Positions 11,457-62,891 of a stretch of DNA of 64,000 nt are shown in pieces. Within the stretch, counting starts at the first letter, position 1. Every line of letters begins with the position of its first letter. The notes under the pieces were generated by a model. That model saw only the letters and a list, made by a program, of their open reading frames with translations, ran no database searches and was not told the DNA's origin. The stretch lies in assembly GCA_029939595.1 (NCBI GenBank), contig JAOZSQ010000005.1:4-64003 (forward strand), written 5' to 3'. The DNA is from Thermoplasmatota archaeon (GTDB lineage: Archaea > Thermoplasmatota > E2 > DHVEG-1). The position numbers were made by a program, and so were the translations under genes.

Positions 11457-11561
11457 CCTCAAAAAATGTGAATACTCAAGCAATATAAAAAGATATATGA
11501 TTCTTTATAGTTTTTTACGACATTTTTATTAATAGGGTTATCCATTATTTTATTGGGATGC

Positions 11562-12374
11562 ATGGAAAAAATAGTGAAAACTGCTATTTATACAAGGGTT
11601 TCTACTGAAGATCAGGCTAAAGAAGGGTTTTCATTAGATTCTCAACTAGTAAAATTAAAAGCATATTGTAAAGCACGTGATTGGATTATATTTGATGTTT
11701 TTATTGATGATGGTTTCTCTGGAAGAAACACTAAGAGACCCGCATATAAGAGATTACTTGAATCAATTGATTCATGGGATGTATTACTTGTTATTAAAAT
11801 GGATCGTATTCATCGTAATTCAAAAAATTTTATGTTAATGATGGAGTATCTAAAAAAACTTGATAAAGAATTTGTTTCTATGATGGAGTCATTAGATACA
11901 TCAACTGCTATGGGTAGATTCGTTATGGATATCATCCAAAGAATCGCTCAACTTGAATCTGAACAAATTGGTGAGCGTGTATATGATGGTATGCAACAGA
12001 AGGCAAAAATGAATGGAGGGAATCTTGGTTTTAATATTCCATTTGGTTATGATTATCAAGATGGATCATTAATTATTAATCAACTTGAACAAAAACATGT
12101 AAAAAATATCTTTCATCTTTATAAATCAGGTATAAGTATGAATAAAATTGCTTATTCATTTAATGAACAATTAATTCGGACAAAAATGAATAAATCATGG
12201 GGATCAGAAACAATTTCAAAGATTCTTAAAAATCCTCTATATTGTGGGAAATTTCATTGGGACATGTATACCCATGAGGGATCTCATGATGCAATAATTG
12301 ATACTAAATTATTTGATGAAGTACAAAGAATAATTAATAAAAAATCAAGAAATCGACCTAATAAAATGATTTAA
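11562..12374 (+). CDS. Serine recombinase (resolvase catalytic domain plus recombinase DNA-binding domain), copy 1
   Basis: YTRVST catalytic Ser, DDGFSG..RP, DRIHR, PFGY, ILKNPLYCG, HDAIID..F..VQ. Confidence 0.92.
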   Translation: MEKIVKTAIYTRVSTEDQAKEGFSLDSQLVKLKAYCKARDWIIFDVFIDDGFSGRNTKRPAYKRLLESIDSWDVLLVIKMDRIHRNSKNFMLMMEYLKKLDKEFVSMMESLDTSTAMGRFVMDIIQRIAQLESEQIGERVYDGMQQKAKMNGGNLGFNIPFGYDYQDGSLIINQLEQKHVKNIFHLYKSGISMNKIAYSFNEQLIRTKMNKSWGSETISKILKNPLYCGKFHWDMYTHEGSHDAIIDTKLFDEVQRIINKKSRNRPNKMI

Positions 12375-12433: not shown

Positions 12434-13252
12434 ATGTACGGGAAGGAAAAAAATGTTGCGATTTATACTAGAGTATCTACTGAGGACCAGGCAAAAGAAG
12501 GTTTTTCTCTTGATAATCAGATTGATAAATTAAGATCATATTGTACTGCAAGAAGTTGGAATGTTTTTCATGAATATGTTGATGATGGTTTCTCTGGGCG
12601 AAATCTTAAAAGACCCGCATACAAACAGATGATGATTGATATTGATAATTGGGATATTCTTTTAGTTTTGAAGATGGATCGTATTCATCGTAATTCAAAA
12701 AATTTTATGTTAATGATGGAAGATCTTAATAAATATGACAAAGAATTTGTTTCTTTAACCGAATCTTTGGATACGTCAACTGCTATGGGTCGATTTGTGA
12801 TGAATATTATCCAATTGATTGCTCAACTTGAATCTGAACAAATTGGTGAAAGGGTTTATGCAGGTATGGAACAGAAAGCTCGTAGTAATAGTGGCGTTCT
12901 TGGTTTTAATATTCCATTTGGTTATGATTATATTGATCATGAATTGTTAATAAATTCTTCTGAATCTATTGTTGTCAAAGATATTTTTTCTCTTTATTTA
13001 CAGGGTAAATCTCTTGGTAAAATTGCTGAATTGCTCAATAATAGTAAAATTGATACAAAAAAGGGGGGGTTTTGGGCAAAAAAAACTATTTCAAACATAA
13101 TTAAAAATCCGCTATATTGTGGATTTTTAAGATGGGACAATATTGTTAATAAAAGTAATCATGAGCCGATTATTTCAATAACTGATTTTAATTTAGTTCA
13201 AGACGCCATTAAAAAAAATAATGGTATTCCATCAAAAAAGATTTCCCTCTAA
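12434..13252 (+). CDS. Serine recombinase (resolvase catalytic domain plus recombinase DNA-binding domain), copy 2
   Basis: YTRVST, DRIHR, PFGY, IIKNPLYCG, HEPIIS..F..VQ; paralog of the upstream gene. Confidence 0.92.
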   Translation: MYGKEKNVAIYTRVSTEDQAKEGFSLDNQIDKLRSYCTARSWNVFHEYVDDGFSGRNLKRPAYKQMMIDIDNWDILLVLKMDRIHRNSKNFMLMMEDLNKYDKEFVSLTESLDTSTAMGRFVMNIIQLIAQLESEQIGERVYAGMEQKARSNSGVLGFNIPFGYDYIDHELLINSSESIVVKDIFSLYLQGKSLGKIAELLNNSKIDTKKGGFWAKKTISNIIKNPLYCGFLRWDNIVNKSNHEPIISITDFNLVQDAIKKNNGIPSKKISL

Positions 13253-16129: not shown

Positions 16130-17083
16130 ATGGGGAAAGCAATCGAAATCAAATCAATTGATGATTTACCTGGTGTCGGACCAGCAACAGCAGAAAAACT
16201 TCGTGAAGCGGGCTTTTCAGATATCATGAGCATCGCTGTTTCATCACCACGGGAACTTTCAGATGCTGCTGAAATCGGCGAAAGCACAGGTTCAAAAATG
16301 ATTCTTCACGCAAGGAAATCTTCAAATCTTGGAAATTTTGAAACAGGAAACACATTACTTGAAAAAAGAGGCAATATTGGTCGAATAACAACAAGTTCAA
16401 GCACATTAAATGAACTACTTGGTGGAGGATTTGAAACACAATCCATTATTGAATTATTTGGAGAATTTGGTTCAGCGAAAACTCAAATAGCTCATCAATT
16501 ATGTGTCAATACTCAACTCTCAAAGGAACAAGGCGGGATGGAAAGTCATGTTTTTTTCATTGATACAGAAAATACCTTTCGACCTGAACGTATAATACAA
16601 ATGGCAGAAGGACATGATTTAGATCCTGAAAAAATATTAGAAAACATTCATGTAGCAAGAGCATATAATTCAAATCATCAAATGCTTCTTGTAGAAAAAG
16701 TAATTGAAATGTCAAAAGAAATTAATTCATCTCTTCTTATCGTTGATTCATTGACCGCACATTTCAGAGCGGAATATATTGGACGTGGTGCACTTGCAGA
16801 CCGTCAACAAAAACTAAATAGACATATGCATGATTTATTACGTTGGAGTGATCTAAATAATGGTGTGGTCTGTGTAACCAATCAAGTATCATCAAAACCT
16901 GATGCTTTTTTTGGTGATCCCACCCGTCCTATTGGAGGTCATATCGTTGGCCATACTGCAACATTTCGAATTTATTTACGAAAGAGTAAAGGACCAAGAA
17001 GAATAGCACGTTTAATTGATTCGCCATATTTACCTGAAGGTGAAGCAGTATTTACAGTAAGTGAAGCAGGCATTCGTGATTAA
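16130..17083 (+). CDS. radA: DNA repair and recombination protein RadA
   Basis: N-terminal HhH ([12 protein letters not shown]), [34 protein letters not shown]. Confidence 0.96.
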
Positions 17084-24351: not shown

Positions 24352-26898
24352 ATGAAAAAAATAGCCGTAATGATAATCGCAAGCTTTGTATTAATAAATA
24401 CTTTTGGTGCTGTTGCTTACACTTCAAAAGATACAGATCAAAAGGAAAAAATAGAAACAATATATAATAATATTGTTATAAATAATGTTAAAATTGATTC
24501 TAAGAATACTAATGGATATATTTCAGTTGAACTTGATGATTGTTCTACATATCTTTCAAGTCCCGGAAAACCAAAATTACCTAAAATTGTTCAAAAAATC
24601 GAATTACCATTTGGTGCAAAGAATATTAATATTGATGTTTTAAAAGGTGAAGTAACAACAGAAGTGATAAACTATGAAGTAAAACCTTCAACTGCACTAT
24701 TGCCTTTAACAGTACAAGAATATAAACCTCAAATCACAAAACCATTAAAAGATATGAGTATCTATGGTGGAACAGAATCGTATCCAAAAAACTCATTTGA
24801 TTATAAAATAGGATGTGGTTTAAACGAAAATAATGAACGTGTAACTTTTGTTATTACTGATATTTATCCAATTCAATATACTCCTTCAAAAAATCAACTT
24901 TCAATAATGTCATCTGCTGATATTATCATTAATTATGAAAAACCAGATTACAATCCATTCCCATCAACTGCTGCTTATGATCTTGTAATTATTGCACCAG
25001 AAGTTTTTATCAATGCATTACAACCACTTGTAGCACATAAAAATGATCATGGAGTTAAAACTTTTATAAAAAGTACGGAAGAAATATATAACGATTATGA
25101 TGGAGTTGATAAACCTGAGCAAATCAAATTTTTTATTAAAGATGCAGTAGAAACATTAGGTTTAAATTATGTCCTTCTTGTTGGAGGATTGAACTCTATT
25201 ATAAAAGCAAAACCTCGAGATAATGCAAATCAAGGAAGTACTGATTGGTATGTTCCTGTCAGGTATACAAATATGTATGATGATCCTGCATTTCCATTAA
25301 TGTCTGGTTCAATCCATGACCCTGGTGTAATAAGTGATTTATATTATGCAGATTTATATAAAGAAGGGGGAGAATTTTCTAGTTGGGATGGAAACCATGA
25401 TGGTATTTTTGCAGCCCTTGGAAAACCAGGAATTGATGATGATCCTACTCTTGATTATTATCCTGATGTTTCATTAAGTAGACTTGCTTGTAGAAGTCTT
25501 GAGGAAGTTGATATTGTTGTTAATAAAATCATCAACTATGAAAGCAGCCCTGCTGATCCTTCATGGTTTGAACGAATGATTGTTGTCTCAGGAGATGGTT
25601 TCCTTGATCAAACTGATTTGAATATCCAATGGGATACTAACAATATTGATGATGGAACCTACACAATTTATGCTCAAAGCCATAATCCAGATGAAGAATA
25701 TGGGCCTATTGTGAGCGTGACTGTTACAAAGGATATTTCAGCTGAATCAGTGATCACTTATTCTCATGATGATCATTTAATTCCAGAAGTCGCTGATGCT
25801 TTGGAAAATGGTTTTCCTACGGTACCAATTGCTGAAATTGTCTCAGTTTCTGATGGTGATATTCTTGGAAATACTGATGTTGCCTTTGATCCAGCAACTA
25901 ATGATTATTGTAATGAATTTTATTTTTGGGCTAATGTTAGTTATGTGGATGAAGTTTTAACTATCCGCGGAAAAAGCTATGACCCTAAACCATATGGAAA
26001 TGTAAGTAGTATACATGTATGGATCGAAGATGATTCAGGGATGAAGGTGTTTGAAGACTGGCGAAATGACACTGAAATGTATTATGAAGGTGAATGGACC
26101 ACAGGTGAAAAATCTTTACTTGGTCGTGGTGGTGCATTGTATTATATGCCAGATCATTTTGAAAGAGAGATCCTTTGGACATCAAATGGGAAATTAATGA
26201 ATCCGGATGATGTAATCTCTTCAATTAGTCAAGGCGCAGGTTTCCTTTTCTTCTCTGGCCATGGAAGTCCAAATGTTTGGGCAGATCAGACTCCTGGTAT
26301 CTCTGGCGATAGAGGACATGCTAGTGTGACAGGTCTTGAAGTGACAAAGCTTTCGTTATGGGGAATCTTAGGAGTATTATCATTTTCTCGATCAGTTCAA
26401 AGCTTGCTTCCATTTTTCCCAATGGATACAATCTCAAATGGTGAGAAGCTCCCTATAGCTGTTGTTGGTGGATGTCATAATAGTCAATTCAATGTCTCTA
26501 TGATTCCAGGTATTATGGAAGGTTTGGAATATATTTTTCCATCAATGGGTCATTCATATATGTGGTGTCATGGATCCGCAGTTCCTGAAACATTTAGTTG
26601 GAGATTAATTAGAAATCCAAATGGAGGCGCAATTGCAAGTATTGGAAACACCGGCCTAGGTTATGGTATGCCTGGTAAAGAACTCACAACTGGCGGCGGT
26701 GATTCATGGATTACAATTGAATTCTTCAAACAATACGGAGAAAATGGTCAAGACATTCTTGGTAATGCATATTTGCAAACACTAAATTCTTATATCGACA
26801 CATTTGATATGACAGATCTTCCAGCAGGCCATCCTAAAACAATGACGCAATGGGTCCTTCTTGGAGATCCAACATTAAAAATCGGTGGATACGAATAA
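24352..26898 (+). CDS. Secreted C25 (gingipain-family) cysteine peptidase with propeptide and internal insertion
   Basis: Signal peptide, PGKPKLP propeptide, YVLLVG, SDLYYAD, SGHGS (His), GGCHNS (Cys), LLGDPTL. Confidence 0.9.
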   Translation: MKKIAVMIIASFVLINTFGAVAYTSKDTDQKEKIETIYNNIVINNVKIDSKNTNGYISVELDDCSTYLSSPGKPKLPKIVQKIELPFGAKNINIDVLKGEVTTEVINYEVKPSTALLPLTVQEYKPQITKPLKDMSIYGGTESYPKNSFDYKIGCGLNENNERVTFVITDIYPIQYTPSKNQLSIMSSADIIINYEKPDYNPFPSTAAYDLVIIAPEVFINALQPLVAHKNDHGVKTFIKSTEEIYNDYDGVDKPEQIKFFIKDAVETLGLNYVLLVGGLNSIIKAKPRDNANQGSTDWYVPVRYTNMYDDPAFPLMSGSIHDPGVISDLYYADLYKEGGEFSSWDGNHDGIFAALGKPGIDDDPTLDYYPDVSLSRLACRSLEEVDIVVNKIINYESSPADPSWFERMIVVSGDGFLDQTDLNIQWDTNNIDDGTYTIYAQSHNPDEEYGPIVSVTVTKDISAESVITYSHDDHLIPEVADALENGFPTVPIAEIVSVSDGDILGNTDVAFDPATNDYCNEFYFWANVSYVDEVLTIRGKSYDPKPYGNVSSIHVWIEDDSGMKVFEDWRNDTEMYYEGEWTTGEKSLLGRGGALYYMPDHFEREILWTSNGKLMNPDDVISSISQGAGFLFFSGHGSPNVWADQTPGISGDRGHASVTGLEVTKLSLWGILGVLSFSRSVQSLLPFFPMDTISNGEKLPIAVVGGCHNSQFNVSMIPGIMEGLEYIFPSMGHSYMWCHGSAVPETFSWRLIRNPNGGAIASIGNTGLGYGMPGKELTTGGGDSWITIEFFKQYGENGQDILGNAYLQTLNSYIDTFDMTDLPAGHPKTMTQWVLLGDPTLKIGGYE

Positions 26899-28392: not shown

Positions 28393-29658
28393 TTAAAGAA
28401 TAGTACCATTAAATTCAATACAAAAAGATTTGATTTTTGATAATAAATTTGCATTGCATTTTAATTCCACATAAATATTTTTTTCATATGAAGTTGATAA
28501 CACATAAGTTTTATCATATAAAAATGAAATAAATGATTGTATTTCACTTGACTGAGGCAATTCCAATTCCATATGTAACATATCAGGCAGATGTGTCATT
28601 ATCCCATTTATCAAACCATAGATTCCTATCTTTTCTTTTAATGAAACTTCTATAATATCATCTTTTGAAAAATGTACAAGTTCACAGATTTGATTTTTGA
28701 TATCTGAAATGTTTTCTTTTCGTAGTAAATCTATTTTATTTAAAATCAGAAGCATTGATGATGAAAAATTTAATTCACCTAATTCTTTTAATGATGCATT
28801 AATTTTTTTTAGCACAATCGGAAAAGGATCTGAGACATCAATAACAAGCAATACCAAATCAGCTTCTTTAATTTCTTCAAGAGTTGAATGAAATGCTTTG
28901 ATAATCCAAGTTGGAAGATTTTGTATGAAACCAACGGTATCGGTTAATAAAATCGGTAATTTATCATCATTAATTTTCCTTGTAGTTGTTGAAAGTGTTG
29001 AAAATAATTGATTCTTAACAGTAACGTCTTCATTTGTTAAAACATTTAATAAACTACTTTTTCCAGCATTTGTATATCCTGCAAGTGAAACAAGATAAAA
29101 ACCACTTCTTTTTCGATGTTTTCTTAAAACAGCTCGATCTTGCTCGATTTTTAATAATTTATTCTTTATTAATTTAATTTGTTTTTTAATCATTTCAAAG
29201 TAATCATCAACTTGATATTCACCACCGGCCATAAGACCTGGATGTTCACCACTTCGAGTTCGATGTATTAGTTCTTTTACATGTGGTTTTTCGTATTCTA
29301 ATTCTGCTAATTGAACCTGCAACTGAGCTTCTTTAATTTTTGCTCTTTCCTTAAAAATCATAAGAATAAGCTTAATCCTATCATATACAGTTACACCCAA
29401 TTCCTTTTCTAACAAAAACCATTGAGATGGTCGAAGTTCCCCATCAAAAATTATCAACCCTATTTCTTCATTATCTTCAAGATAACTTTTAATTTCATCA
29501 AGTTTTCCAGATCCAATATATGTTTTTACATTAGGATTGTTTCTATGTTGAATAAATGTATTAACAACATCATATTCAAAAGATTTAGCTAATTGAATTA
29601 TTTCAGTGACATCATCATTTAAAGAGACAACAATTGATTGTTTGTATTCTAATAGCAT
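28393..29658 (-). CDS. hflX: GTPase HflX
   Basis: GSGKL, EAQLQVQLA, GYTNAGKSSL, LFSTLSTT, DTVGFI, NKID. Confidence 0.93.
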   Translation of the reverse strand: MLLEYKQSIVVSLNDDVTEIIQLAKSFEYDVVNTFIQHRNNPNVKTYIGSGKLDEIKSYLEDNEEIGLIIFDGELRPSQWFLLEKELGVTVYDRIKLILMIFKERAKIKEAQLQVQLAELEYEKPHVKELIHRTRSGEHPGLMAGGEYQVDDYFEMIKKQIKLIKNKLLKIEQDRAVLRKHRKRSGFYLVSLAGYTNAGKSSLLNVLTNEDVTVKNQLFSTLSTTTRKINDDKLPILLTDTVGFIQNLPTWIIKAFHSTLEEIKEADLVLLVIDVSDPFPIVLKKINASLKELGELNFSSSMLLILNKIDLLRKENISDIKNQICELVHFSKDDIIEVSLKEKIGIYGLINGIMTHLPDMLHMELELPQSSEIQSFISFLYDKTYVLSTSYEKNIYVELKCNANLLSKIKSFCIEFNGTIL

Positions 29659-29777
29659 AATTATTTTTCATTATTAAAAACAAAATTGACCATATTAAAC
29701 CTATCGAAAAGATATCGACAATTCTTCCGCAAATTATTAATGAATCTTATCCATAACACCTGGAAACGTGATATATC

Positions 29778-31112
29778 ATGGATGATGATTTAACAAAAAT
29801 TGGTGTCATACCCTCTGACAGAAAAAAATTAGAAAACATGGGAATTACAACACTTCATCAACTTGCTGTAATGTCTATTCAAACCTTAGGAATGGGGCCA
29901 AGCAAAGGTAATCAACTTATTCAACGGGCAAGAAATATATTATATAATAAAAATATTGTTGATATCCAAATAAAAGATGATGAGATTATTGAATTAACTG
30001 TTAAGAAAACAGATAGAGCTATTCGCAAATCAGTCCTTAACGCATTAGATGTTTATTCATCTGGTTCTTGGGGTTCTACTGCACTTGAAATCGATGAAAA
30101 CACACTTATTTTAAAAAGAAAATCACAGGGTTTTAATAAAGTTATACTTAAAGCTCAATCATTACAAGAAATCCTAGAAACAAAAAAAATTGGAGAAAAA
30201 GAAAAAGATGGGATTTTTCTTCCAGAAAATGAATTGATGAAATTTGCAAAAGAAAGAGGATTTGAAGGTTTTTGGGAAAATGTATTTCAGGAGATTCATG
30301 GTAATTCCATTATGAAAAAGATAATTGCAACTAGTATGTTTTCTACTTTTAATGAACCAATTCATTCATTGGTTATTGGTGAACCTGGGAGCAGTAAAAC
30401 AATGGCAAAAGAGATCATTAGTGAAGAATTCAAAGATATCACCAATATTGGGGCAAATACAACTCGTTCTGGTCTTGTCTGCAATCTTGGAACCGGAGAT
30501 CTAGGTGCATTGCCTCATTCAAATCATAAACTTGTTCTAGTTGATGAATTTGATAAGATACCTAGCGATGATATTGAATATACATATGAACTTTTATCTA
30601 ATGGAAAATGTACTATACATTCAGCCAAAGTCCATCAAAATATTATGAGTCACTTTATTATGATTGCTTTTGCTAATCCTAAAACAAAAGTCTTTACAAA
30701 AAATTTTGCAAATGATATTGGACTCTCTCCTTTGCTTTTAAGTCGATGTGCTTTAATTGTACGAGTTAAAAACATAAGTACAGAAGATCGTTTGAGCTTA
30801 TTTGAAAAAAAGTTCTTTGGTGAAAGTGAATTAAAAGAAAAACATGACTATTATGATCAGTGGGTACGTCTCTCTAGAAAATTTAATCCAAAAATCACTG
30901 CATCAAAAAAAGCCGTAAGATCATATCTTTCTGAAATGAATGAGATTGTTGAACTATATTATGCATCAAATCTTCGAAGAGATCTACGGATGGCAGATTA
31001 CATTCGACGTATCCCCCTTGCGATTGCTCGTGCTTCTTTTACTAACATAACTGATGAGATACTTAAAGAAGCTGAATCCATTATTAAAGAATCTATAAAT
31101 ACTTGGCAATAA
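29778..31112 (+). CDS. MCM-family AAA+ ATPase with N-terminal RadA-like HhH domain
   Basis: EIHG, IHSLVIGEPGSSKT, VLVDEFDKI, AFANP, LLSRC; N-terminus aligns by eye with the RadA N-domain. Confidence 0.82.
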   Translation: MDDDLTKIGVIPSDRKKLENMGITTLHQLAVMSIQTLGMGPSKGNQLIQRARNILYNKNIVDIQIKDDEIIELTVKKTDRAIRKSVLNALDVYSSGSWGSTALEIDENTLILKRKSQGFNKVILKAQSLQEILETKKIGEKEKDGIFLPENELMKFAKERGFEGFWENVFQEIHGNSIMKKIIATSMFSTFNEPIHSLVIGEPGSSKTMAKEIISEEFKDITNIGANTTRSGLVCNLGTGDLGALPHSNHKLVLVDEFDKIPSDDIEYTYELLSNGKCTIHSAKVHQNIMSHFIMIAFANPKTKVFTKNFANDIGLSPLLLSRCALIVRVKNISTEDRLSLFEKKFFGESELKEKHDYYDQWVRLSRKFNPKITASKKAVRSYLSEMNEIVELYYASNLRRDLRMADYIRRIPLAIARASFTNITDEILKEAESIIKESINTWQ

Positions 31113-33813: not shown

Positions 33814-35799
33814 ATGAATCATTTCAAGATAAACAAATTTATTTCCAATAAGATTCTAACTATCATCTTTATCCTGCTATTTATCCTAAATCCACTTCTT
33901 AATGTTCCAGCCATATCAGAAAGTGAAAACAACACTATCGAGGTTATCACAATCAATAATCAACTTAATTTTTCTAATATTTCTATTTCATCTGATCAGA
34001 AATTTACATTAATAGGAGCTCAAAACATATCCACTGAATTGATGAACAATAATGGTGTAATTTCATCTAATATTACTAAAACAATCATAATACCAAGAGA
34101 TTCAATCATTAAAAACATTTCTTATTCCTATCTTGACATTCAGGATTTTACTATTGAACATGAATTTAAGTTATTACCTCAGATTATAAGATATTCAACT
34201 AACAGACAATTAATGAATCTTTCATTAATGACTTCTGATTTTAGCAATTCAGAATATGTTTATTCAAATCAATCCTTTGATTATTCTATTGGATCTGGTA
34301 TCTCCAATGGTGAACCATCTCTTTTTATAACATTACAATGTAATCCAATTTCATATAATCCAAATTTAAAACGTTTATCGATTGCATCATCAATGAATTA
34401 TTCAATTAGATATGAAACATTAAAAAACAACATTGAAACTGTATCAGATGTTGATTTAGTGATAATTTCACCACAGTCATTTCAAAATAGACTGGAACCT
34501 TTAGTGGAACATAAAAATAATGTTGGAATTAAAACTATAATAAAAACAACAGAGGATATTTATTCTGAGTTTGATGGAAGAGATGATGCAGAAGAAATAA
34601 AATTATTTATCAAGTATGCATTAGAGCAATGGAATATTAAATATGTGTTACTAGTAGGAGGGCTTATTGGTCAAACTGATAAATGGCATGTCCCTGTTAG
34701 GTATTCAAATCTTCATGATCGTTCATTTTGGAATGATAGTTATGTTACTGATCTATATTTTGCAGATATTTATCGATACAATACCATTCTTGAAACAATA
34801 GAATTTGATGATTGGGATAGTAATCAAAATAATGTTTTTGCTGAATGGTCATGGATTTATGATCAAGAACGGGGATGGTGGTATGATCTTGATAAAAAGG
34901 ATAATCTTGATTTATATCCAGATGTAGCAATTGGCCGGCTAGCTTGTAGAAATCGAAGAGAAGTTGAGAATGTTGTAAATAAAATAATTCATTATGAGAC
35001 AAATAGCTTTAATCAAGATTGGTTTAAATCTGTTATTCTTTGCGGTGGAGATACTGTCCCTTATAGCGATGGTGTTTGCGAGGGTGAAATTGAAAATGAA
35101 TATGCTGCTTCTTATCTTGAACCATTAGGTTTTGAAACAAAAAAATTATGGGTTTCAACTGGTACGTTGAAGGGACCCTTAGATGTTATTAGAGAAATGA
35201 GAAAAGGAGCAGGTTTTTTATATCTCACAGGTCATGGAACTCCTCGTGAATGGTGTACACATCCTGTTTCTGATGATTCAACATGGATCGATCTATACTC
35301 TTATGCAATGGATCAAATCAATAATAATTATAAACTTCCAATTTGTGTTGTAGGAGGATGTCATAACAGCCAGTTTGATGTTGGTCTTTCAAGAATTCCA
35401 AATGGTGCTTCAAAATATGGTTTATCATATTTTTTATGGAATGAAGGAATTGATTGTTTTTTTAAATGGACTTGGGTTTCTTCATGCTGGAGTTGGAATC
35501 TTATATCTCAAAAAAATGATGGATGCATTGCAGTTATTGGAAATACGGGTCTTGGATGGGGAGTTGGTGGTGAATCGTCCACTGAGTACAATGAAGGTTA
35601 TTTAACAACTCGATTTTTCCAGATTTATGCTTCTCTAACTCAACAAGAAATTAATCAACTAGGGATTGTGCATTGTGAAACTCTGAATAATTATATTTCT
35701 CATTTTTCAGCTAATAATAACCTTTTAGATAGAAAAACAGTTGAGGAATGGGTTCTTCTTGGTGATCCAAGTTTACAGATTGGTGGATACCCCAATTAA
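33814..35799 (+). CDS. Secreted C25 (gingipain-family) cysteine peptidase
   Basis: YVLLVG, TDLYFAD, IGRL, GGDT, TGHGT, GGCHNS, LLGDPSL. Confidence 0.9.
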   Translation: MNHFKINKFISNKILTIIFILLFILNPLLNVPAISESENNTIEVITINNQLNFSNISISSDQKFTLIGAQNISTELMNNNGVISSNITKTIIIPRDSIIKNISYSYLDIQDFTIEHEFKLLPQIIRYSTNRQLMNLSLMTSDFSNSEYVYSNQSFDYSIGSGISNGEPSLFITLQCNPISYNPNLKRLSIASSMNYSIRYETLKNNIETVSDVDLVIISPQSFQNRLEPLVEHKNNVGIKTIIKTTEDIYSEFDGRDDAEEIKLFIKYALEQWNIKYVLLVGGLIGQTDKWHVPVRYSNLHDRSFWNDSYVTDLYFADIYRYNTILETIEFDDWDSNQNNVFAEWSWIYDQERGWWYDLDKKDNLDLYPDVAIGRLACRNRREVENVVNKIIHYETNSFNQDWFKSVILCGGDTVPYSDGVCEGEIENEYAASYLEPLGFETKKLWVSTGTLKGPLDVIREMRKGAGFLYLTGHGTPREWCTHPVSDDSTWIDLYSYAMDQINNNYKLPICVVGGCHNSQFDVGLSRIPNGASKYGLSYFLWNEGIDCFFKWTWVSSCWSWNLISQKNDGCIAVIGNTGLGWGVGGESSTEYNEGYLTTRFFQIYASLTQQEINQLGIVHCETLNNYISHFSANNNLLDRKTVEEWVLLGDPSLQIGGYPN

Positions 35800-61505: not shown

Positions 61506-62891
61506 TCACACCTTAATTTCTAATGTTGGATCTCCAATCAATATCCATTCTTGAACAGTTTTTGCATCAATAGAAGATGTTTTTCCAGAAGGCGTGTTCC
61601 AATTAATTGGAAATGTCTGCACATATTCAGTAATAGCATTCTTCCAGATTGTTCCAAGAGTTGTTTCTCCATTGGCATATTCCTTGAAAAATTGAATATT
61701 CAGCCAATCTGAACCTCCACCTCCAAATTCTATTCCCTGCCAGCTTAAACCTGTACATCCAATTGTTGCAATTGAACCACCATGGGGTAAACTAGTTAGT
61801 TTCCAACTCCAACAATCACGATGCCAGGTACCATATATATAAGGATTGCAGAAAATTCTAAAAGAAGGATCATCAAACTTACTGTTTTGGCATGCACCAA
61901 TAATGCATATTGGTAGCTTGTTTTTATTTCTTAATAGAGGCATTAAAAGTTTTGGAAAGTTTCCAACTATTTTAGAGCTATTTGGTGGATGAGTATTCCA
62001 TACATCTGGGCTTCCATGACCTGATAAATAAAGAAATCCACATCCTTGACTAATTGCTTTAATTAGTGATAATGTTGACAAAGTTTTAGTTGATGCAAAA
62101 AGTTTTGTTGCATCAAAATCAGACAAGATATTAACTGCTTCATCTAAATTTTGTTCACCTTCATAATTATCATATTTATCTTCATCATATCCACGAGCTG
62201 CTGAATAGGTATCTCCACCTGCAACAACAAATCGATGGAACCATCCATCATAATCAGTCTCTGTTTCATAATTAATAATCTTGTTTATCATTGTTTTTAC
62301 TTCAAAACGATTTGAACATGGAAGCCTGCCAATAGATACCTCAGGAGTTAAGCTTATATCTTTATCCTCAGCATGCTCTCCATTCCATTCACCATATAAG
62401 CTATCACCTTCAGTATCCCAAGAAGAAAAATTTCCATTTTCATCATAAATATCAGCATAATAAAGATCGCTAATGAAATATGGTTCCATTGATAAATATC
62501 CATCATTATTATAACAATATCTAACCGGAACCTCAATAAAATCTCCTATTAAAAGAACAGAACCAATTTTATATTCATCATAGTTTTGTTTTATACAATA
62601 TTTGATTTTTTCCTGTTTGTCGTTTCCATCGTAATTATTATAAATCTCTTTAGTTGTTTTAATTATTGTTTTAACATTTTGATTTAATTTATGATCTATC
62701 AGTTGTTGACACTCCCTTTGAAACTTTTTTGGGGCGATAATCAACAAGTCAAAAACACTTGTTTCATCATCATTTTTTTTAAATGTTTTTGATTTTACCA
62801 TATTTGTAGAAATTATTGAAATTGAGATTAAAATTACCACAATTATAATACTTATAATTTTTTTCATTATTATTCTCCCGGTTTTTTTCAT
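61506..62891 (-). CDS. Secreted C25 (gingipain-family) cysteine peptidase, compact form
   Basis: VLLIGD, SDLYYAD, IGRLP, GGDT, SGHGS, GACQNS, LIGDPTL. Confidence 0.9.
   Translation of the reverse strand: MKKTGRIIMKKIISIIIVVILISISIISTNMVKSKTFKKNDDETSVFDLLIIAPKKFQRECQQLIDHKLNQNVKTIIKTTKEIYNNYDGNDKQEKIKYCIKQNYDEYKIGSVLLIGDFIEVPVRYCYNNDGYLSMEPYFISDLYYADIYDENGNFSSWDTEGDSLYGEWNGEHAEDKDISLTPEVSIGRLPCSNRFEVKTMINKIINYETETDYDGWFHRFVVAGGDTYSAARGYDEDKYDNYEGEQNLDEAVNILSDFDATKLFASTKTLSTLSLIKAISQGCGFLYLSGHGSPDVWNTHPPNSSKIVGNFPKLLMPLLRNKNKLPICIIGACQNSKFDDPSFRIFCNPYIYGTWHRDCWSWKLTSLPHGGSIATIGCTGLSWQGIEFGGGGSDWLNIQFFKEYANGETTLGTIWKNAITEYVQTFPINWNTPSGKTSSIDAKTVQEWILIGDPTLEIKV

Follow-up and report, generated by a model that had tools for sequence, protein, structure and literature searches.

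What does an MCM-type motor with a helix-hairpin-helix (HhH) head do in an archaeon that already has an ordinary MCM? The question is raised by one reading frame in a stretch of 64,000 nucleotides from a Thermoplasmatota archaeon (assembly GCA_029939595.1, contig JAOZSQ010000005.1; hereafter the window). From the letters alone, an earlier note had read the 444-residue product as an MCM-type AAA+ motor fused to a RadA/Rad51-like N-terminal domain, and had proposed a non-replicative MCM paralogue for recombination or repair, conceptually like eukaryotic MCM8/9. All motifs which that note quoted are present, in order, in the open reading frame at 29778..31112 of the plus strand, whose product is referred to here as the short MCM. 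Its parts, and two other genes of the window, are as follows.

16130..17083, plus strand: RadA of the window, used as a comparison protein, 12.7 kb from the short-MCM gene.
28393..29658, minus strand: HflX-type GTPase, the divergent neighbour; a local neighbour only and not part of a system.
29768..29772, plus strand: GTGAT, candidate ribosome-binding site 5 bases upstream of the ATG (sequence), presumably akin to the archaeal consensus.
29778..31112, plus strand: gene for the 444-residue, HhH-headed short MCM-type ATPase (reading frame, Pfam, dN/dS).
29778..29951, plus strand: (HhH)2 head, residues 1-58 (model, profile match, alignment).
29952..30131, plus strand: middle domain, residues 59-118, predicted beta-beta-alpha-beta-beta (model).
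30132..30206, plus strand: long linker helix, residues 119-143 (model).
30207..31109, plus strand: MCM-clade AAA+ motor, residues 144-444, with the lid last (sequence, model, fold search).
30378..30401, plus strand: Walker A, K207/T208 (alignment, conservation).
30462..30503, plus strand: shortened helix-2 insert, with T229 (Sso T369) invariant, R230 new and the Y386 equivalent absent.
30543..30548, plus strand: Walker B, D256/E257 (alignment, conservation).
30603..30644, plus strand: pre-sensor-1 hairpin, with S282 at the place of Sso K430, and K284 (alignment).
30675..30677, plus strand: sensor 1, N300 (conservation).
30744..30746, plus strand: arginine finger, R323 (alignment, conservation).
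30987..30989, plus strand: sensor 2, R404 (conservation).

The gene is intact and strongly conserved in uncultured sediment archaea. Purifying selection acts on the family, with dN of 0.12 and dS of 1.66 between the short MCM and its relative L127 (two other pairs were saturated), and a pseudogene or chance reading frame is ruled out by family conservation together with dN/dS. In two genomes the short MCM is 72% and 55% identical to the query, and the replicative MCMs of these genomes are 73% and 69% identical to that of the host. Head and motor are equally conserved (mean identity 0.66 each), the middle domain being the least conserved part, and the base composition of the gene does not stand out from its flanks. 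Promoter and terminator scans at the locus, run with bacterial models, gave chance-level results, and a search of sequencing runs for the short MCM listed no RNA holder.

Judged by sequence and predicted structure, the C-terminal motor, which at about 300 residues (144-444) is longer than the 280 or so first estimated, belongs to the MCM-clade AAA+ ATPases and lies clearly nearer to MCM than to other members of that clade. Residues 152-337 match the Pfam MCM family PF00493 (E 2e-13; 50.4 bits against a cut-off of 23.3), as do 57 of 57 members, and the 60 matches listed in a PDB sequence search are all MCMs. A fold search over 48,161 representative chains returned MCMs in its best 11 rows (Z 22.2-26.8), led by 4r7z (Z 26.8, rmsd 3.3, 276 aligned), followed by RavA (Z 16.9), BchI (16.6), BrxL (15.5) and ComM (15.0). 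The AAA+ fold is shared with replicative MCMs (Sso 3F9V/6MII, Pf MCM-AAA 4R7Z, M. acidophilum 8Q67, Mcm2-7) at Z 22-27, against at most 17 for other clade members, which bears out the original grouping with MCM; BrxL, RavA/MoxR and BchI belong to the same clade with far weaker matches (Z 15.5-16.9), and neither the additional domains nor the partner genes of these proteins were seen with the short MCM. Also as described from the letters, the outer parts of a replicative MCM are absent: the NCBIfam full-length MCM model NF040949 has a cut-off of 940 bits and the short MCM scores 32, the chain stops no more than 10 residues from W443 in the last lid helix, without a winged helix, in 234 of 235 members, and the model contains no N-terminal A/Zn/OB tier, the motor being preceded by 143 residues that hold no cysteine in the query.

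Residue conservation was counted in 235 proteins of at least 400 residues, taken from 243 that score above 200 bits with the family profile among 368 stored proteins; 55 of the 235 are less than 50% identical to the query. K207, D256, E257, N300 and R323 occur in 235/235 and R404 in 234/235. Walker A, which had been called deviant, is only mildly so, its lysine being invariant and the next residue always Thr or Ser. These elements (Walker A and B, sensor 1, arginine finger, sensor 2), together with the equivalent of T369, are common to replicative and short MCMs, and it is the pore loops that are rebuilt. The helix-2 insert, rightly suspected to be shortened, has a spacer of 9 residues in 235/235, compared with 17 in Sso MCM, 18 in the host MCM and 15-19 in other full-length MCM-type proteins matched by pattern (a 609-residue sister-group protein is the one exception); it is 8-9 residues shorter than in replicative MCM, which removes the equivalent of Y386. 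Ten further residues present in the host MCM are missing before Walker A, a stretch that we take to be the external hairpin. Within the insert T229 is found in 235/235, and R230 is Arg or Lys in 233/235. The position of K430, whose replacement the earlier note overlooked, is Ser, Thr or Ala in 235/235, with Lys or Arg two residues on, at position 284, in 229/235, and the trans sensor-3 pair H418/Q423 of replicative MCM is Tyr/Asn (220 and 230 of 235). Numbering of the Sso protein follows excerpts of PMC6629641 and a PDB sequence alignment; according to the same excerpts T369 of Sso MCM contacts DNA and K430A abolishes its unwinding.

The short MCM is an MCM-clade ATPase and not a replicative MCM, ComM or a known defence protein. 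The host genome, which is 93% complete, encodes a separate, ordinary MCM, in a frame of 703 codons on a different contig, which answers a check that the earlier note had proposed and rejects the short MCM as the only MCM of its host; a full MCM likewise occurs in 21 of the 23 genomes that carry a full-length copy of the short one. The two motors of the host are only 25% identical. A quick AAA+ tree of 94 rows (with a random draw of 22 from 61 long proteins, six rows without a located Walker A omitted, one MoxR outgroup) united the 32 family rows in one clade with an SH-aLRT of 100, and a careful mixture-model tree of 32 rows recovered the family at 100/100 on a long stem, joined at 100/99 with five other proteins that have the 9-residue spacer. 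An AU test rejected a clade of the family and the replicative MCMs of the host class (p-AU 0.012), and with it a recent duplication of the host MCM. In these trees the family appears as a deep clade of its own, apart from full-length MCMs, and the unrooted topology is compatible with either a sister group or a derivative of MCM. MCM8/9 retain the MCM N-tier. They are described, in excerpts of the literature, as non-replicative MCM paralogues in recombination, and their motors match that of the short MCM at Z 23.6-24.8; unlike the short MCM they have the full MCM architecture and form a heterohexamer with HROB, and there is no sign of special kinship (the trees were built without MCM8/9 sequences). 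The comparison with MCM8/9 made in the earlier note is therefore loose, given also that the family stands apart from full-length MCMs.

The AlphaFold2 model (57 sequences; mean pLDDT 82, pTM 0.70) consists of a five-helix head, a middle domain, a linker helix and an AAA+ module, and by profile matching the head is assigned to the Rad51-N type of (HhH)2 module. A profile of 32 N-termini found the N-domain of human RAD51 (1b22) as its best PDB match (E 7e-4, with a four-residue gap), followed by DMC1, DinB, RadA and NusA. The second HhH is four residues shorter than in RAD51-N, and matches of members to the HhH families of Pfam are weak at best (E 0.002-0.008). At least 20 bits with the head profile are reached by 227/235 members, partly by construction as the profile was made from Thermoplasmatota members. 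In the fold comparison the head superposes on AF1548-C (Z 9.5, rmsd 2.5, 58 aligned) and NusA-AR2 (Z 8.6, rmsd 2.1, 59 aligned). The N-domains of RAD51, RadA and DMC1 are likewise five-helix (HhH)2 modules, followed by a RecA core and not by an alpha/beta domain.

The resemblance to the RadA of the window, first seen by eye over a stretch that corresponds to residues 3-52, is upheld by the profile and by hhalign (probability 92%, score 34.7; best of 30 shuffles 17.5) and not by pairwise BLASTP, in which residues 1-61 gave no match to this RadA. A particular link to RadA does not follow: the HhH tail of the ribosomal protein S3 of the genome, identified by eye, scores equally well (35.9), so that the HhH/Rad51-N type of the head stands while neither an origin from RadA nor a role pointing to RadA can be derived from it. 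Four other HhH stretches of the genome score at most 22.4. HhH heads occur on ribosomal and transcription proteins too. The S3 gene with its C-terminal HhH tail lies at G000:C2:12898-13794, and a second HhH domain 5 kb from it, at G000:C2:18451-18618, probably belongs to another ribosomal protein. Excerpts of PMC1964548 name K40 and G65 of RAD51 as dsDNA contacts; they align with K17 (Lys in 194/235, and in only 17/55 distant members) and G38 (216/235) of the short MCM, and RAD51 K70 aligns with K43 (Lys or Arg in 231/235). RAD51 K73 has no basic counterpart (Q46), so that two of the three dsDNA residues K40, G65 and K73 align.

Folded alone, the middle domain is predicted with confidence (pLDDT 92). 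In the query it matches no Pfam family and, at E<=0.001, no Foldseek entry, and a fold search with the predicted structure reached at best Z 6.3 (ACT-like domains), with no match at 8 or above; the best 50 matches contain no OB fold, and one further down stays possible. Some distant members carry a B-box insert within this domain. This B-box-like zinc insert is seen in P0131 (Pfam E 6e-5), P0160, P0125 and P0138; N-terminal extensions of 150-180 residues stand ahead of the head in P0121, P0327 and P0141, and the head is replaced in P0136.

The architecture is conserved among relatives, as the earlier note would have expected of a real fusion: a search with the single sequence gave 430 matches, of which the 120 listed are at least 70% identical and 443-467 residues long. 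Matches are mostly in Thermoplasmatota MAGs, and we take the carriers to be Thermoprofundales/MBG-D on account of the name SM1-50. The synonymy used for this placement is given in excerpts of PMC9585477. The short MCM was found in 74 of 118 genomes of the host's order and 89 of 197 of its class, and in a phylum sample 53 of 401 genomes carry it, with one carrier outside the class. There is one match per genome, two broken into pieces excepted, at 55-76% identity across an order. Distant members at 33-48% identity exist, and those with names include Bathyarchaeia, Thermoproteota and Syntrophoarchaeum. Among near-complete genomes of the class it is present in 43/76 and was not found in 33/76; this absence from many near-complete genomes and the full MCM in its own genome both speak for a non-replicative role. 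One gene copy, L105 (G119:C19:80425-81752), is in three frame pieces, possibly through assembly errors.

We tentatively read the short MCM as a non-replicative translocase on dsDNA that serves recombination or the repair of forks and not the unwinding of the replication fork, a reading that falls a little short of probable. In MCM the arginine finger and sensor 2 act in trans (excerpts of PMC6629641), and because they would act on the neighbouring subunit here as well, subunits may assemble head to tail, probably as a ring; an ATPase site kept under strong selection, combined with these trans-acting residues, makes an oligomer likely. A two-copy model with ATP and Mg scored 0.00 and is no evidence either way. 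The HhH heads would replace the lost N-terminal ring as the grip on DNA, allowing loading without Orc1/Cdc6, and ATP turnover would drive two pore elements along the backbone, the helix-2 insert with T229 and R230 and the pre-sensor-1 hairpin with K284; that K284 takes over the role of K430 is a guess. The outcome would be translocation along duplex DNA with weak strand separation, and the cell might use it for branch migration or the remodelling of stalled forks, as bacteria use ComM.

More specifically, ComM has a half-size helix-2 insert that lacks the Y386 aromatic and a foreign N-domain that adds DNA contacts, loads by itself and migrates branches (excerpts of PMC11612176). These three changes recur in the short MCM, which also has a head of dsDNA-binding type, and a duplex translocase is favoured for that reason. 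ComM (8RXD), an MCM-related bacterial branch-migration motor with a short helix-2 insert, is a closer mechanical analogue than MCM8/9. The two differ in that ComM has a Lon-like N-domain, a Zn finger and a C-terminal domain, matches the fold at a Z of only 15.0 and keeps a basic residue at the MCM-like pre-sensor-1 position where the short MCM has Ser; neither the Lon-like N-domain nor the Mg-chelatase C-domain of ComM/YifB was found in the short MCM by model and Pfam. That an MCM motor can work outside its usual frame is illustrated by BcMCM of a Bacillus cereus prophage, an active 3'-5' helicase with an unrelated N-terminus (excerpts of PMC2715239), which unlike the short MCM is prophage-borne, with a primase-like Zn-binding N-terminus, and by the AAA+ core of Sso MCM, which alone hydrolyses ATP and melts even blunt duplexes; weakly oligomeric, it is a helicase of low processivity that accepts blunt and 5'-tailed duplexes (excerpts of PMC1807962).

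Several observations count against a translocase. The replacement of K430 weakens a classical helicase role, the trans sensor-3 pair is changed, RAD51 K73 lacks a counterpart and K17 is rarely Lys in distant members, the head resembles the S3 tail as closely as RadA, no repair or recombination protein is among the common labelled neighbour families, and none of RuvB, NurA and Hjc tracks the presence of the short MCM: class-wide, RuvB was found in 1/197, NurA in 36/197 and Hjc in 134/197 genomes. On the side of the translocase, the host has Hjc, and RuvB, NurA and DprA were not found in its 93% complete genome. NurA was found in only 2/107 genomes of the host's family, and at E<=1e-8 entire genera that carry the short MCM gave no Hjc match (g9, 0/6; g44, 0/4). 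A bolder version, which we regard as doubtful, is that an old, separate archaeal branch of MCM-like proteins forms a self-loading dsDNA translocase, a one-chain analogue of RuvA (the HhH grip) plus RuvB (the AAA+ motor), or an archaeal ComM. If true, archaea without RuvAB would have a branch-migration motor, and MCM would have been recruited to recombination independently of MCM8/9.

A restriction or anti-mobile-element motor of the McrB or BrxL kind, in which DNA recognition falls to the head and the ring powers a nuclease from a different locus, is unlikely; under it the short MCM of the host lineage may be a domesticated remnant. Patchy presence across archaea would fit, as would the superposition of the head on AF1548-C and, as a lead only, P0136, which has an Mrr-like N-terminal region instead of the head; Mrr-type restriction endonucleases are among the Atlas clusters nearest to this region (scores 0.88-0.90). 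Against such a motor, at E<=1e-12 only 5 of 140 neighbour-family representatives (from 142 families of at most 900 residues in Thermoplasmatota loci) matched PADLOC, each through a domain that looks generic (methyltransferase, HTH, radical SAM, CDC48-like), and matches of the short MCM itself span about 100 residues of the AAA+ core and none is full-length. Its single copy per genome and a conservation close to that of replicative MCM within the family (72% against 73%) argue in the same direction; such conservation is unlike most defence genes. Scans of viral contigs, which need short exact peptide patterns, found no relative with the patterns A5, A2, P0136, P0125, P0129 and P0157, and plasmids and phages gave weak partial matches to ordinary MCMs only.

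The context of the gene is chromosomal housekeeping and not mobile, in agreement with the earlier note. Within three genes, the 82 loci read (many of close kin, many cut by contig ends) have NadE downstream in 35, RIO1 and KH/Dim2 upstream in 27 each, SAICAR synthetase in 24 and HflX upstream in 14. A place after RIO1 and KH/Dim2, or near HflX, might point to a remodeller of RNA or RNP acting in ribosome assembly or recycling or on stalled transcription complexes, with a head used like NusA-AR or ribosomal HhH tails, and the likeness of the head to NusA-AR2 and the S3 tail and the loss of K430 would suit it. We consider this distinctly unlikely, since those loci are close kin and not independent, the neighbours in other families are unrelated (TBP, M54 peptidase, tRNA ligases) and the KH gene is kept in five genomes without the short MCM, in which KH and NadE lie apart and no clean deletion can be read. 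No conserved partner gene was found in Thermoplasmatota loci, and we know of no characterised MCM-clade protein that acts on ribosomes.

RavA, BchI and MoxR, which have the same class of fold, work on proteins, and this too counts against a translocase. A protein-remodelling ATPase of this kind, gone from DNA and with its head as a protein-docking module, would account for the rebuilt pore loops that lack K430 and Y386, and RavA and BchI come directly behind MCM in the fold search; it is nonetheless improbable, as sequence and fold are clearly nearer to MCM, T229 and the new basic pore residues are nearly invariant and no von Willebrand partner is among 30 labelled neighbours. A role as dedicated partner to RadA or to the replicative MCM, by docking on RadA filaments through N-domain mimicry or by regulating mixed MCM rings, is just as improbable: RAD51, DMC1 and RadA N-domains dominate the PDB list of the head and the trans-acting arginines are kept, yet no linkage to radA or mcm occurs in the loci read, the motor is only 25% identical to that of the host MCM, there is no N-tier for joining a ring and the head resembles the S3 tail at least as much as it does RadA.

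Returning to the translocase reading, the short MCM, at only 50 kDa, would be a candidate motor for branch migration or fork remodelling in archaea, one that can be expressed and assayed with no need to culture the host. As an experiment of nature it also helps to tell the features of MCM that make a replicative helicase from those of a plain translocase. Viruses and plasmids are the usual explanation for additional MCMs in archaea (excerpts of PMC3914693); the short MCM is by contrast encoded by a chromosomal gene that is fixed, present once per genome and slow to evolve in a sediment lineage of wide distribution, and it has a new front end and altered pore loops. Searches of open-access PMC and bioRxiv brought up no description of an HhH-short-MCM architecture, and excerpts of PMC3914693, PMC4619765, PMC9585477 and PMC10848311 contain none; subscription papers or supplements, e.g. 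arCOG tables, may list it. Databases label members as 'MCM' or 'hypothetical', and an automatically made cluster of the ESM Atlas corresponds to the family.

Other short MCM-like proteins with varied N-termini group with the family (P0157, P0158, P0164, P0167, P0173, P0181, P0187), and the pattern-matched ones among them share the 9-residue spacer. Several relatives also encode a bare MCM-like ATPase, not found in the host genome (G000), of 300-320 residues with no N-domain (L206:5267-6208, L207:5370-6320, L208:5509-6480, L209:5446-6351, L210:5113-6015, L211:5425-6327, L212:4061-4999), which has an 11-residue helix-2 spacer, keeps the pre-sensor-1 lysine and forms its own long branch amid changing chromosomal neighbours. 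Elsewhere in the window, two adjacent, similar frames of 272-273 residues (11553-12374 and 12434-13252) look by eye like short serine recombinases, and those at 24352-26898, 33814-35799 and 61506-62891 encode secreted, gingipain-like proteins of peptidase type C25, with a homologue that matches PF01364.
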